Below, in pieces: positions 23,801 to 50,735 of a DNA stretch of 64,000 nucleotides. Where the stretch lies: the sequence record NZ_KX443399.1; one strand, 5' to 3'. Under the pieces are notes generated by a model. The model saw nothing but the letters and a program-made list of their open reading frames with translations, was not told where the DNA came from and ran no database searches. The number at the start of each line of letters is the position of its first letter. Position 1 is the first letter of the stretch. The stretch is from a plasmid. Position numbers and translations under genes: made by a program.

Positions 23801-23835
23801 AGTTGCAACATAACAGGCACCACCTGTAATGTTAT
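23801..23835 (+). promoter_or_regulatory. Conserved sigma-70-like promoter/operator cassette, copy 1
   Basis: AGTTGCAACATAACAGGCACCACCTGTAATGTTAT. Confidence 0.5.
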
Positions 23836-23847
23836 GCGTGTTGGTGG

Positions 23848-24675
23848 GTGCTCGCCCACCGATTTCGGCCGATGAAAGTGGTTCCCATCGAAATGGCGCT
23901 CTTCACCCCGACCTACCGCTACGACGACCCCACTCTGACCGCGCCGGCACCCGGCCGCGCCCTGATCGAGGCCGTCGGCCTGGTGGAGTCCGTCCCTGGT
24001 GTCGGACCGAAGACCGGTGGCGGCTACATCGGTATCCCGCTCGCGATCGGGCCGCTGCACACCCGGCTGCGCCGCCCGTACGACAACGTCGAAATGACGC
24101 TGCCTAACACCGATGTCCAGCTCTGGAACAGTCCGTTCATCGTCGCCGGTCACGCTCGCGGGTGTTTCGACCTGGCCGATCGTCCCGGCTGGCACTGGCT
24201 GCGCTGGACCATCGCTGACCACGTCGCGCACGACGCCGCTCAGGCCCAGGGCGCGACGCCGCTGGTGATCGTGCCGTGCGGAGCAGCGAAGGCTAAGACC
24301 CCGGCCCCGGCAGGCCAGCTCTATCGCGGCACCTATCACCGCCTCGGCTTGCGCGCGGCCGCAGCGCTCACCGGCCCCGAGTCCATCCGCATCCTCTCTG
24401 CCCGCCACGGACTGCTGCCCCTGCACGACGTCGTCGCGCCATACAACCTGCGCCTTGGCCAGCCGGGCTCGGTCACTGCGGCCCAGCTCCTCGACCAGGC
24501 CACCGTGCAGGGCCTGCGCGATCGCCCCGACGTCGTCCTCTTCGGCGGCCGCGACTACGTCGACCTCGCACAGCAGGTCTGGCCGCACGCCCGCACCCCG
24601 CTTACCGGCGCCGCCGGCATCGTCGAACAGCAGCAGCGCCTCGCCGCGATCGTCGCCGCCGGCCACCTGAACTGA
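23848..24675 (+). CDS. Hypothetical protein with an 'IVPCGAAKAK...LYRGTYHRL' motif
   Basis: Protein-like composition opposite an obviously artefactual antisense frame. Preceded by the conserved TTGCAA-N18-TAATGT promoter cassette. Confidence 0.5.
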   Translation: MLAHRFRPMKVVPIEMALFTPTYRYDDPTLTAPAPGRALIEAVGLVESVPGVGPKTGGGYIGIPLAIGPLHTRLRRPYDNVEMTLPNTDVQLWNSPFIVAGHARGCFDLADRPGWHWLRWTIADHVAHDAAQAQGATPLVIVPCGAAKAKTPAPAGQLYRGTYHRLGLRAAAALTGPESIRILSARHGLLPLHDVVAPYNLRLGQPGSVTAAQLLDQATVQGLRDRPDVVLFGGRDYVDLAQQVWPHARTPLTGAAGIVEQQQRLAAIVAAGHLN

Positions 24676-24702
24676 CCACCCCCGCACCACTGGAGGCCAC
24701 CT

Positions 24703-25110
24703 ATGACCGAATCCCTGACCGACTTCTTCGGCCCCCTGATCGCCAGCTACAGCCGCGCCCAGGCCATCGAAGACGGCGTGCTGCACGACGTCACCGACGC
24801 GGCCCGCGAGCACGGCATCCTGCTGCCGACCGCGATCGCCGCGCACGCGTGGGCCGCCGCGGTGGCCTGGCCCAACCCGCACACCGCCAGCGAGTACGAG
24901 GCCAGCCGCGCGTGGAGCGTGCTCGTCTACGCATCGAACGCCCTGCGCCGCGCCAAACGCCTCGGCCGGGAGGGCATGCAGGAGTTCACCTTCGTTCCCG
25001 CACCCGACCTCGACGACGCGGAGGACATCGAAGTGACCCTCGGCGTCGAGGTCGGCCCCGGCGACGCGGGAGAACCGGTCCTCACCATCACCGCGGTCGC
25101 CGATCGCTGA
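24703..25110 (+). CDS. Hypothetical protein
   Basis: RBS GGAGG 8 nt upstream of the ATG. Non-repetitive composition. Confidence 0.45.
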   Translation: MTESLTDFFGPLIASYSRAQAIEDGVLHDVTDAAREHGILLPTAIAAHAWAAAVAWPNPHTASEYEASRAWSVLVYASNALRRAKRLGREGMQEFTFVPAPDLDDAEDIEVTLGVEVGPGDAGEPVLTITAVADR

Positions 25111-25186
25111 CCATCCAGGCGGCCGCGGCCCTCCTGGCTGCGGCAACCAGGCGATTGGACTTGAGCGACTACGCGAGAGGAACCCC

Positions 25187-25528
25187 ATGTCTGCCACCGC
25201 GACCGACCCGCTGACCAGCCACTACCCGCCGAACTGGGATGCTCGGCCCCGCGTTGAGCAGTGGAACGGCCACATCACCCGCGACGACTGGCTCACCCGC
25301 GACAAGGCCGACCTGGTCAGCATCATCGAACTGCTCAGCCAGCAGGTCACGAATGCGAACCAGAACGCACTCGACGCGAGCTACCTCGCCGAATGGCGCA
25401 TCCACCGCGTGCTCACCGAAGTTCGTATCGGCGCCCGGATCTACCTGCACCTCACCCGAGCCCGCCGCCGGGGCCGCAAGACCGCGCGGATCGACGAGTT
25501 GCTGACACATGGCGGCGGTGGAGAGTGA
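25187..25528 (+). CDS. Hypothetical protein
   Basis: RBS GAGAGGAAC. Coiled-coil-like middle region. Confidence 0.4.
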   Translation: MSATATDPLTSHYPPNWDARPRVEQWNGHITRDDWLTRDKADLVSIIELLSQQVTNANQNALDASYLAEWRIHRVLTEVRIGARIYLHLTRARRRGRKTARIDELLTHGGGGE

Positions 25529-25908
25529 ACGCCGCCCAGATCCTCGACGCGATCGCACGCAAGCGCTCCAGGAGAACCGACAATGTGCCGATCTAACAGC
25601 GGAAACGACACGTCCCCCTTTCCTGTGGCTCCGGCCCCTCCGTTGCCGCCGGCCAGCGCGAGTGAATACACCCACTCGTGCGGTCACGTCTCGCCGTGGG
25701 GGCGGTGCGAGCTGCACGACTCGATCGACACCCTGCCGTCGCTGTGGGGCGTCGCTGAGGTTGTGCCGGCCACCAGCAACACGGGGGAGCACCTGCACCC
25801 CTTCCAGTTCTGCGAGGCCGAGCAGGCGGCGGTGGACATCTGGGCGCACCACAGCTCGACCGCGCGCACGGCTGTGGTCGTCATCCGCCGGGACCGGCGC
25901 GGCCAGCG

Positions 25909-26259
25909 ATGGGAGGTCACGCCGTGACCGGCCGCCGCCGACCGGTGCCGTTCCGGATCACCACGGCCCTCGACATGGCCGATCTCCACGGCCCCGAGGT
26001 CGACGCCGCGCTCGGCGTCCCCGAACCCACCGTTGACCTGTGGGAAGAGGGCAAACTCGTGCCCACCGACGATCAGCTGCACCGCCTGGCCAAGCTGACC
26101 GGATTCCCTGTCGCCTACTTCTTCCGGGAGCGGCCAGCTCAGAACGAGACCGGCGCGATGTTCCTCTGCCGGCGCGGCCGCGGCGGCGGATGCGAGATCG
26201 TCGACGACCGCCCCTCAGCGGACGTAGTCGACCTGTTTGGGCAAGGGGCGCTGTGGTGA
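25909..26259 (+). CDS. XRE-like HTH protein
   Basis: 'LDMADLHGPEVDAALGVPEPTVDLWEEGKLVPTDDQLHRLAKLTGFPVAYFF' is a canonical XRE HTH. The start is uncertain. Confidence 0.4.
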   Translation: MGGHAVTGRRRPVPFRITTALDMADLHGPEVDAALGVPEPTVDLWEEGKLVPTDDQLHRLAKLTGFPVAYFFRERPAQNETGAMFLCRRGRGGGCEIVDDRPSADVVDLFGQGALW

Positions 26260-49128: not shown

Positions 49129-49192
49129 TCGCCACACCGTCGGCCTGGGCGGCCGTTCGCCTGGTGCAGCACCCGTTTGACATCGAAAGTCG

Positions 49193-49229
49193 GGAACCTT
49201 TCTGCGGCAGAACGCATCTGAATGTGTGA
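49193..49229 (+). promoter_or_regulatory. ECF-type promoter, copy 5
   Basis: GGAACCTTTCTGCGGCAGAACGCATCTGAATGTGTGA. Confidence 0.6.
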
Positions 49230-49263
49230 GCGGGAAATACGATCCCGCCGCTTCGAGAGAGGG

Positions 49264-49509
49264 ATGCAGATGGGGAAGAAGATTGCGCAGGGTCTGGTGC
49301 TGGCAGCGGCCGCAGCGGGTGTGACGCTCGCGTCGATCGGAGTGGCGCAGGCCGCCACGTACGGCCCGTACGCCTACGACCAGTGCCGAATGATCCAGGC
49401 AGGCGTGACCACCCTTCAGCCGGGGCAGGTTCTGTGCACCACCGCCAACGGTCTGCCGGGCGCAAAGTACGTCCTGCCCATGACGCAGGGTGGGGTCACG
49501 ACGCGGTAG
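49264..49509 (+). CDS. Small secreted protein (about 80 aa)
   Basis: Signal peptide 'GLVLAAAAAGVTLASIGVAQAATY' and two Cys residues. Confidence 0.45.
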   Translation: MQMGKKIAQGLVLAAAAAGVTLASIGVAQAATYGPYAYDQCRMIQAGVTTLQPGQVLCTTANGLPGAKYVLPMTQGGVTTR

Positions 49510-49587
49510 CCCTCGCGCACGATGCACCTGGTCGGCCGCCGCCGCCGGGTGTATCGGCATGTTTCAAGGGAGGGGCGAGCAAGCTCT

Positions 49588-50558
49588 CTAGTGTCGTCCG
49601 GGGAGATCGACATCGCGCGGCGACTTGTCGTCGCGCAGGCCCTTCCACGCGGGGTGCCGCAGACTTCCGCCGGCGTACTCGCGGAACTCGACATCGCCCA
49701 CCAGTTCGGGCTCGACCCAGTGGGCTCCTTTGGTGTCCCGGGTGGGCGGCGGTGCGGCGAGGGGGCTCGTCGGTCGCTCCAGCTGTGTGAGCTGAGCGCG
49801 CAGGGCCCGTCGGCCGGCACCAGTGAAGCCGGTGCCGACGTGCCCGATGTAGGTGAGCTGGCCATCACCGTCGTACGCGCCGAGTAGCAGCGATCCGACG
49901 CCGCCGCGGGCGCTGCCGGTCCCGTCGACCCAGCCGACGACGACGGCCTCGGTGTTCGCGCGCAGCGGGTGCTTGATCCAGGTAGGAAAGCGGCGGCCCG
50001 GGCGGTAGGTGGAGTCGATGCGCTTGGCTACCACGCCCTCGAGGTGGTGCTCGCGGGCCAGGTCGAGCATCCGGTCACCTCCGACATCGGTCCAGTACGG
50101 CGGGACCTGTACCCGCGGCCCGGAGAAGCCGAGCGCGTCGAGGTCGGCCCGCCGCTCGACGTACGGCAGCGAGGTAGTGGAGTGGCCGTCGAGGGAGAGG
50201 ACGTCGAACAAGTAGAGGACCACCGGAACGTCGGCCCGGAGCGCGGTGGTGGGCCGCAGCACGTGCATCCGGCGCTGGAGCCGGCCGAACGAGGGCCGGC
50301 CCTTCGCGTCGAGGGCGACGATCTCGCCGTCGAGGATCGCGTCGCGGCCGTCGAGGACATCAGCGAGCGGGTCGACCAGCTCGGGAAAGCGGCAGTGATG
50401 TCGTTGCCGTTCCGACTGAACAGGCGGCTGGAACCCGAATTGACCTGAGCAATTGCCCGTTGGCCATCCCACTTCATCTCCCACGCCCAGCCCTCGCCCT
50501 CCGGCAGCTGGCCGAGCGTGGCCAACATCGGGGACGGCACCACCGACGGCGAGGGCAT
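49588..50558 (-). pseudogene. ATP-dependent DNA ligase (LigC/LigD ligase-domain type) with a 1-nt frameshift
   Basis: The N-terminal frame has motif I 'EMKWDGQR'. The C-terminal frame has 'DGEIVALD', 'LEGVVAKRIDSTYRPGRRFPTWIKHP' and an OB domain. The sequence reads TTCCCGAGCTGG where TTCCCGGAGCTGG would keep the frame. Confidence 0.6.
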
Positions 50559-50699
50559 ACCCCGAGTCTGCGGGAAAGGCGTTCGGGCGGAGGCGGAACG
50601 GTGTGATCGGCTGCGCGACTGGGGACCTGTCGTCTCCGCAGGTCAGGATCGGCGTGTAGGAGCTGATGATGCGAATTTTACAATCCGCCAACGCCTTCG

Positions 50700-50735
50700 G
50701 GTTGCAACATCGCAAGGAACACCTGTAAGGGTATT
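50700..50735 (+). promoter_or_regulatory. Conserved sigma-70-like promoter/operator cassette, copy 3
   Basis: GGTTGCAACATCGCAAGGAACACCTGTAAGGGTATT. Confidence 0.5.

Follow-up and report, generated by a model that had tools for sequence, protein, structure and literature searches.

Repeated promoter-like cassette with a putative dyad-symmetric operator on the backbone of pVAPN-type Rhodococcus plasmids

Several plasmids control their backbone genes through short palindromic operators. In the IncP-1 plasmids RK2/RP4 and the IncW plasmid R388, the repressors KorA/KorB and ArdK/StbA, respectively, act on such operators at several backbone promoters, often over the -10 element. The regulator genes of these systems are themselves autoregulated, and a burst of expression in a new host is followed by shut-down. 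One repressor serving many short sites, at consensus-like promoters, is also known from the CI/Cro operators of phages and from gp71 of mycobacteriophage L5 with its stoperators, the latter being asymmetric sites of 13-14 bp that occur by the dozen and act on elongation in an orientation-dependent manner. In the putative mobile promoters, the same promoter is reused before non-homologous genes. Here we describe a promoter-sized cassette that is present in three copies (copies 1-3) in a stretch of plasmid DNA of 64 kb (64,000 nucleotides of NZ_KX443399.1, referred to as the window). Judging from sequence comparison, each copy is likely to be a promoter for the host housekeeping sigma factor (SigA), with a dyad-symmetric operator lying over its spacer and -10.

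The pattern GTTGCAAC-N16-TGTAAKG(T) occurred exactly three times in the window, always on the + strand (Table 1). All three copies are intergenic, lie just upstream of + strand genes and are co-oriented with them. A degenerate form of the pattern, with up to three mismatches allowed, recovered copies 1-3 and nothing else in the window, and gave 0 matches in 100 dinucleotide shuffles; chance alone should give none. Each of the sub-words GTTGCAAC, TTGCAACAT and ACCTGTAA was found three times in 64 kb, always within copies 1-3. When the window was scanned with a position weight matrix (PWM), copies 1-3 scored 52-54 and the next best match on the + strand scored 5. On the - strand, the top scores of 16 and 14 belonged to unrelated sequence, and the next two, of 10.4, came from copies 1 and 2, whose palindromes were read in reverse. 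No additional copy, intermediate or degenerate, came to light in the window by the PWM scan or by a looser skeleton scan. An earlier note on this DNA had described three near-identical copies of 35 bp. The number proved exact; the block begins one base later than described, at the G of GTTGCAAC, and the copies are near-identical in the sense of 24-26 identical positions out of 31 in pairwise comparison, and no more than that. Their likeness ends at the edges of the shared block of 31-34 bp.

The TTGCAA of copies 1-3 matches TTGACA at four of six positions, with TTG intact, and relatives of the cassette carry TTGACA at the same place. Natural variants of the -10, such as TATAGT, TATTGT and TAAAGT, come nearer to the sigma-70 consensus. 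The pairing of TTGCAA with a TANNNT hexamer at a distance of 18 bp, which the earlier note ascribed to every copy, was borne out for copies 1 and 2 (TAATGT and TAAGGT), both of which satisfy TANNNT at 16-19 bp from the -35. Copy 3 satisfies it in part only, its hexamer TAAGGG having no terminal T, which is the T of greatest importance. Likewise, the conserved CAGG reported in the spacer is present in copies 1 and 2, and copy 3 reads CAAGG. We found that this conserved "spacer" is part of a 25-bp palindrome, ACMTNNCARG-N5-CCTGTAAKGT, which occupies positions 7-31 counted from G1 of GTTGCAAC and whose right arm is the -10 hexamer. The predicted transcription start lies ~19 bp downstream of the dyad centre, and the dyad covers the whole -10. 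In one left-arm copy of the related plasmid pVAPN94-27, 11 of the 12 dyad pairs are complementary.

The symmetry was examined in 55 distinct instances gathered from all loci fetched. Among these instances, which were picked with a skeleton that included the positions concerned, A7, C8, C13, A14, T24, G25 and G30 were present in 100% and T31 in 54/55, so that the invariant core across lineages reads AC-N4-CA-N9-TG-N4-GT. Other skeleton positions were far more variable (G1 71%, G4 62%, A6 71%). T2 and T3 were conserved in 89% and 96%, respectively, and the TTG element was found on the upstream side only. With the dyad centre set at position 19, 451 cells were complementary; shifting the centre by half a base or by one base lowered the number to 183-206. 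The pairs 16-22 and 18-20 were complementary ~1.7 times as often as expected from column composition (24 vs 14.5 and 24 vs 13.1, respectively), by means of several pair types. The right arm was much better conserved than the mirror positions precisely at -12/-11/-10 (T26 89% vs A12 53%; A27 98% vs T11 67%; A28 89% vs T10 36%). Since G30, C13 and A14 have no role in the recognition of a -10 by sigma, their invariance is explained by the dyad only. Since the core is symmetric, one arm is under additional constraint and the -35 is present on one side only, we infer a promoter overlaid by the operator of a dimer. The TTGACA/TATAGT-type variants and the right-arm bias at -12/-11 indicate that the promoter under this putative operator is of the housekeeping-sigma type. 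The earlier proposal of a repressor-binding site overlapping the promoter thus gains support from comparative evidence, which points to a dyad in both the spacer and the -10. To our knowledge, none of the IdeR iron box, the LexA box, the CRP/GlxR site, the NrdR box, the KstR/KstR2 sites and the BldD box fits the spacing or orientation of the invariant core.

The window was 94-98% identical to pVAPN94-27 (NZ_AP024188) and pVAPN1572 (KX443401) and, as judged by this likeness, belongs to the linear virulence plasmids of the pVAPN type from Prescottella (Rhodococcus) equi; pVAPN is the virulence plasmid found in R. equi associated with ruminants and humans. A low-GC stretch at ~6000-20000 (55-60% GC vs 65-70% elsewhere in the window) is the vap pathogenicity island (vapN, vapO, vapP, vapR, vapS), by comparison with the annotation of pVAPN94-27. 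No motif copy was found in this island (~6-20 kb of the window), and copies 1-3 all lie in the right-arm backbone, in agreement with the previous description of the cassette as a shared regulatory module of the backbone. A scan of the complete pVAPN94-27 identified six strong and two weak copies (8 in 125 kb), including the orthologues of copies 1-3. Its left-arm strong copies lie on the - strand and its right-arm copies on the + strand, each 28-216 nt before the start codon of the next gene.

Among known plasmids, pNSL1 has the backbone most closely related to that of pVAPN (PMC5434932). By the same scan, it has eight copies in partly syntenic places, all co-oriented with the downstream gene and with the -35 and -10 in register, and a ninth, degenerate copy upstream of DUF6884 is the counterpart of copy 1. 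In pVAPN94-27 and pNSL1 together, 16/16 copies are intergenic and aimed at the next gene, 12-358 nt before its start. The inner palindrome differs symmetrically between the two plasmid types, being CA(A/G)G-N5-CCTG in pVAPN and CAAA-N5-(A/T)TTG in pNSL1. Further versions, each with its own inner spacer, are carried by pBD2, pROB01 and pRHL1, and ~35 soil-metagenome contigs display the same architecture. On one such contig, Ga0164308_10339831 (L048, 26-62), the motif is palindromic throughout, with a -35-like TTGCAA/TTCCAA on both sides. In the scan, this member is scored as a copy on either strand; it could serve as a bidirectional promoter with one shared operator.

A search of 185,579 species-representative genomes for the pVAPN-type pattern, which is strict and would miss pNSL1-type variants, found none except one chance match in a Bacteroidales metagenome-assembled genome. 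A BLAST search of PLSDB with the 35-nt consensus matched pVAPN records only, and the diverged family members were accordingly found via synteny and the skeleton scan. Viral contigs contained neither a DNA match to the motif nor a homologue of the small regulator candidate described below, and thus gave no sign of a phage origin. Since the pVAPN-type pattern, as searched for in genomes, viral contigs and PLSDB, was confined to pVAPN apart from the one chance match, the regulator is probably plasmid-borne. A description of the motif was not found in the literature searched, which did not include the original pVAPN paper.

The best candidate for the regulator is an AlpA/HTH_17-like protein of 85 amino acids (aa) encoded in the left arm, a tentative assignment that we find almost as easy to believe as to doubt. 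Its gene is not in the window, as examined by tblastn. The protein matched Pfam HTH_17 weakly (E = 0.009), phrog_597, a "DNA binding protein", with E = 3e-13, and PDB 8c3t, an AlpA-family protein, weakly (E = 0.007). Homologues were found in 50 PLSDB plasmids, 42 of them from Rhodococcus, as well as on 36 contigs from soil metagenomes. Of the 41 loci scanned, 27 have a divergently oriented motif copy ~110-260 bp upstream of the 85-aa gene that matches the skeleton clearly, at 15 or more of its 18 positions. The skeleton is also matched by the promoter of the 85-aa gene itself in the pNSL1/pBD2-like and pVAPN lineages (e.g., GTTTCCACAAAGCAAT-N5-TATGTAAAGT), which have copies on two sides; other lineages have a clear copy on the divergent side only. 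We also noticed back-to-back motif promoters, with their first bases ~30 bp apart, of which one is directed to the 85-aa gene and the other to a DUF3560/exonuclease operon. The location of the 85-aa gene between two putative operators, a classic arrangement of autoregulated genes, suggests that the candidate may be autoregulated. A second regulator candidate, the XRE-type helix-turn-helix (HTH) protein of the copy-1 operon, has no counterpart in the corresponding operon of pNSL1, where only a distant paralogue is present elsewhere.

Several observations weigh against this interpretation. A generic (E. coli-type) sigma-70 consensus scan misses the copies, whose -10 matches TATAAT at three of six positions. 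Copy 3 in the window lacks the -7 T, and its dyad is degraded (5/12 pairs, p = 0.12). The orthologues of copy 3 in pVAPN94-27 and pVAPN1572 retain TAAGGT, with a degraded -35 in pVAPN1572. Copy 3 looks like a weakened version of the cassette, with the -7 T gone and the dyad largely eroded, and it may be decaying or differently regulated. The close pVAPN relatives are so alike (90-95% identity throughout) that footprinting among them has little power; the motif identities of 0.97, 0.90 and 0.71 for copies 1, 2 and 3, respectively, compare with 0.90, 0.89 and 0.61 for the upstream flanks. The invariance in the 55 instances comes partly from the manner of their selection. With regard to the regulator, the only evidence that singles out the 85-aa protein is its conserved neighbourhood, and small proteins of the HTH_17/AlpA/Xis type are better known as direct-repeat binders or activators than as typical dimeric repressors. 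In addition, an identical putative recognition helix (STFRGYVSRGQ) is present in two lineages with differing inner spacers. A covariation of the recognition helix with the inner spacer was considered and was not convincing, the same helix occurring with two spacer types.

In the mechanism that we prefer, a plasmid-encoded dimeric DNA-binding protein would occupy the dyad and block RNA polymerase, and 6-8 backbone operons in both arms would form one regulon. The regulator would be the 85-aa AlpA/HTH_17-like protein, subject to autoregulation. The operons would be co-repressed in the established host, and entry of the plasmid into a repressor-free recipient would probably cause a burst of expression, followed by shut-down. 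The genes under the copies encode DUF6884, DUF6573, DUF3560 with a 3'-5' exonuclease, an SLT transglycosylase, an ADP-ribosyltransferase with a glycohydrolase, an HD_4 protein with a RelA_SpoT-like protein, and a pentapeptide-repeat protein. Speculatively, this content would suit functions in establishment or counter-defence. A broader hypothesis is that an "establishment regulon", so far undescribed, is common to the invertron-type linear plasmids of Rhodococcus (pVAPN, pNSL1, pBD2, pROB01, pRHL1 and many uncultured relatives). In it, 6-8 outward-facing operons of both arms with the AC-N4-CA-N9-TG-N4-GT operator would be controlled by one autoregulated 85-aa dimeric repressor and expressed in a burst on conjugative entry. 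We regard this as possible, if rather unlikely. Dimeric repression by the 85-aa protein would, if true, be unusual for the AlpA/HTH_17 fold.

One alternative explanation is that the motif is a promoter for a sigma factor of the extracytoplasmic function (ECF) type, either the plasmid's own or one of the host, with TGCAAC as the -35, TGTA/GTAA as the -10 at 15-16 nt further on, and an incidental spacer. The plasmid does encode an ECF-type sigma factor (Sigma70_r2 and r4_2 domains), A7 and C8 are invariant in the 55 instances, and TGCAAC-N15-TGTA resembles Bacillus-type ECF promoters, e.g., TGAAAC-N16-CGTA. However, pNSL1 has eight copies and, by tblastn, no homologue of this sigma factor or of the CopG protein adjacent to it. 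Although ECF sigmas usually autoregulate, PWM and skeleton scans found no motif copy upstream of the sigma gene. On these two grounds, the plasmid ECF sigma is unlikely to be the reader of the motif. Moreover, the first A of "AAC" is replaced in 16/55 instances (TTGACAC, GTTTCCAC), as against a conservation of 89-96% for the TT of TTG; the -10 has TGT and not CGT; and C13-A14, G30-T31 and the whole dyad are left unexplained. We consider an ECF-type promoter improbable.

The copies may instead be unregulated promoters spread by duplication or recombination, as "mobile promoters", with a spacer that is alike owing to recent descent. In accordance with this, the three copies precede unrelated genes, inner spacers are alike within one plasmid, and copy 3 with the 48-aa open reading frame (ORF) behind it is visibly a duplicated module, since this ORF is paralogous to those behind the left-arm copies (56% amino-acid identity to the left-arm ORF of pVAPN94-27 and 69% to the pNSL1 ORF). 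On the other hand, the dyad is significant in individual copies, and the symmetric invariant positions are retained across at least six lineages whose inner spacers have otherwise diverged. Furthermore, the substitutions between pVAPN variants spare the fixed positions of copies 1 and 2. As compared with pVAPN94-27, the sole dyad change in copy 1 is at one N position of the -10, and the changes in copy 2 are confined to the central N5 and position K. Spread without regulation, therefore, has in our judgement only a small chance of being the full explanation.

We also considered that the dyad-bound protein might be an activator that remodels the promoter in a MerR-like manner, or a loader of an anti-terminator, rather than a repressor. 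The candidate has a MerR/Xis-like HTH_17 fold, its best solved relative belongs to the AlpA family, and the small ORFs behind copy 3 and its paralogue are each followed by a hairpin. The spacer of 18 bp, however, is shorter than the 19-20 bp of MerR-type promoters, and a dyad that is centred near -19 and covers the whole -10 favours occlusion. The analogy with the anti-terminator AlpA of Pseudomonas was rejected, as the protein of that name is another and larger one, whose HTH is formed by helices H7-H8 (residues ~128-142) and which recognises a 6-bp asymmetric site (PMC9371919). An activator or loader thus appears quite improbable. That the dyad serves as a nucleic-acid structure (a leader RNA hairpin, a DNA cruciform or a single-strand promoter in conjugative entry) is very improbable: complementary changes of several pair types occur at the inner pairs, and the MobF relaxase of the plasmid makes single-stranded transfer conceivable, but the hairpins predicted for the motif are weak and vary from copy to copy (z = -2.4, -0.8 and -0.1 for copies 1-3, copy 3 forming none), the -35 lies outside the dyad, so that a hairpin would not rebuild a duplex promoter, and the arms are unequally conserved, as a -10 would require.

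The surroundings of the copies are listed in Table 1. As the earlier note stated, three unrelated genes follow the copies; the start that it gave for the gene behind copy 1, 23848, is the opening of the ORF, and the annotated start in a relative corresponds to a GTG 30 nt further on. The GC-rich hairpin ~95 nt upstream of copy 2 is conserved in pVAPN94-27 and is probably the terminator of the copy-1 operon. The hairpin behind the 48-aa ORF of copy 3, which has an analogue behind the left-arm paralogue of this ORF, could act as a terminator or attenuator. A module composed of the promoter-operator, the 48-aa ORF and a GC-rich hairpin thus occurs twice per plasmid, near the left telomere and in the right arm. 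Relatives of the HD-domain operon on plasmids of R. pyridinivorans and R. aetherivorans have no motif copy upstream; therefore, copy 3 and its 48-aa ORF appear to be a module added in the pVAPN/pNSL1 lineage. A leader 5' of the HD-domain gene, GTAAGATGA(A/G)(C/G)GAAGATGGAGG, is common to pVAPN and these plasmids. The overlapping HD_4 and RelA_SpoT-like genes (50990-52223) resemble a small alarmone hydrolase/synthetase pair of the toxSAS type. Elsewhere in the window, the ECF sigma gene, a small ORF and the gene of a CopG/RHH (ribbon-helix-helix) protein form a block at 34933-36174, in which the sigma and CopG proteins do not differ from those of pVAPN94-27 (100% identity).

Table 1. Positions of the cassette copies, their elements, relatives and surrounding features (PWM, position weight matrix; RBS, ribosome-binding site).
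Feature	Replicon	Position	Strand	Basis or remark
Copy 1, GTTGCAACATAACAGGCACCACCTGTAATGTTAT	Window	23802..23835	+	Pattern, sub-word and PWM scans
Copy 2, GTTGCAACATTGCAGGCAATACCTGTAAGGTACT	Window	27205..27238	+	Pattern, sub-word and PWM scans
Copy 3, GTTGCAACATCGCAAGGAACACCTGTAAGGGTAT	Window	50701..50734	+	Pattern and PWM scans
Copy 1 -35-like TTGCAA	Window	23803-23808	+	
Copy 1 -10-like TAATGT	Window	23827-23832	+	Spacer 18 bp
Copy 2 -35	Window	27206-27211	+	
Copy 2 -10 TAAGGT	Window	27230-27235	+	Spacer 18 bp
Copy 3 -35	Window	50702-50707	+	
Copy 3 hexamer TAAGGG	Window	50726-50731	+	Spacer 18 bp; without terminal T; alternative AAGGGT at 19 bp
Copy 1 dyad, ACATAACAGG-N5-CCTGTAATGT	Window	23808-23832	+	9/12 complementary pairs, p = 0.0004 vs shuffles
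Copy 2 dyad	Window	27211-27235	+	9/12 complementary pairs, p = 0.0007 vs shuffles
Additional strong copies, left arm	pVAPN94-27	3514, 7521, 12829	-	Outside the window; strand of local genes
Weak copies, outside the window	pVAPN94-27	12860, 48798	+	
Syntenic diverged counterpart of copy 2	pNSL1 (L010)	3497	+	
Counterpart of the pVAPN copy at 12829 (-)	pNSL1 (L009)	11651	-	
85-aa AlpA/HTH_17-like gene	pVAPN94-27	12956-13213		
Back-to-back promoters	pVAPN94-27 (L006)	12796-12893		
Back-to-back promoters	pNSL1 (L009)	11618-11714		
Back-to-back promoters	L016	32949-33045		
DUF6884, first gene after copy 1	Window	23878-24675	+	Annotation of relative; Pfam; GTG 23878, ORF opens 23848
DUF6573, copy-1 operon	Window	24703-25110	+	Annotation of relative; Pfam
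Two small unknowns, copy-1 operon	Window	25187-25528, 25583-25927	+	Annotation of relative
XRE-type HTH, copy-1 operon	Window	25909-26259	+	Pfam
Unknown, end of copy-1 operon	Window	26421-26951	+	Annotation of relative; operon 23878..26951
GC-rich hairpin	Window	27064..27109	+	-37.1 kcal/mol, z = -6.1; 14-bp GC stem, no T tail
115-aa unknown, after copy 2	Window	27353-27700	+	Leader ~117 nt, RBS AGGAGG
411-aa unknown, after copy 2	Window	27967-29202	+	Genes to 29202
ECF-type sigma factor	Window	34933..35460	+	Pfam and NCBIfam: Sigma70_r2 and r4_2, closest to SigM and SigW models
48-aa ORF after copy 3	Window	50762-50908	+	Paralogue of 48-aa ORFs behind left-arm copies
Strong hairpin, then TTTTC	Window	50912..50943	+	-26.8 kcal/mol, z = -4.1; between 48-aa ORF and HD-domain operon
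Promoter-operator/48-aa ORF/hairpin module	Window	50762-50943	+	
Promoter-operator/48-aa ORF/hairpin module	pVAPN94-27 (L006)	3290-3514	-	
Promoter-operator/48-aa ORF/hairpin module	pNSL1 (L009)	1874-2079	-	
Conserved HD-gene leader	Window	50962-50989		Remaining upstream region unrelated
Conserved HD-gene leader	L004	3002-3029		Remaining upstream region unrelated
Conserved HD-gene leader	L005	3006-3035		Remaining upstream region unrelated
HD_4 domain protein	Window	50990-51424	+	E = 4.5e-11
RelA_SpoT-like protein	Window	51417-52223	+	Weak match, E = 3e-4
Unknown of HD-domain operon	Window	52220-52777	+	
Pentapeptide-repeat protein, end of HD-domain operon	Window	52831-54330	+	Operon 50990..54330

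Relatives of pVAPN hold much of the catabolic capacity of environmental rhodococci. A compact promoter-operator shared by 6-8 operons would define a regulon together with a short list of candidate regulators, and co-regulation would give a first handle on mostly uncharacterised genes, for example in plasmid establishment or counter-defence. In Rhodococcus genetics, the cassette would also be of use as a ready-made promoter part that can probably be repressed.

When compared with the known systems, the cassette resembles the promoters of the MerR family in having a dyad between the -35 and -10, and the candidate regulator has a MerR/Xis-like winged HTH. It differs from them in its spacer length and in a dyad (positions 7-31) that runs over the whole -10, and the 85-aa candidate, unlike MerR proteins, has no coiled-coil dimerisation or effector domain. 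Unlike stoperators, the sites are dyads, number 6-8 per replicon (3 in 64 kb, 8 in 125 kb) and are always accompanied by a -35/-10 pair; unlike for phage operators, no copies of them were found in viral contigs. The cassette shares with mobile promoters the occurrence of near-identical, promoter-size sequences before unrelated genes on one replicon. However, its internal dyad and the conservation of its architecture across diverged plasmid lineages set it apart from them and suggest a regulon rather than simple copying. The host belongs to the Actinomycetota, the replicon is a linear one of the invertron type, the operator sequence is unrelated to those of KorA/KorB and ArdK/StbA, and the candidate regulator is an 85-aa HTH_17/AlpA-like protein, unlike KorA or the ParB-like KorB. 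As in the KorA/KorB and ArdK/StbA networks, nevertheless, palindromic putative operators are found at several predicted backbone promoters, where they overlap the -10.

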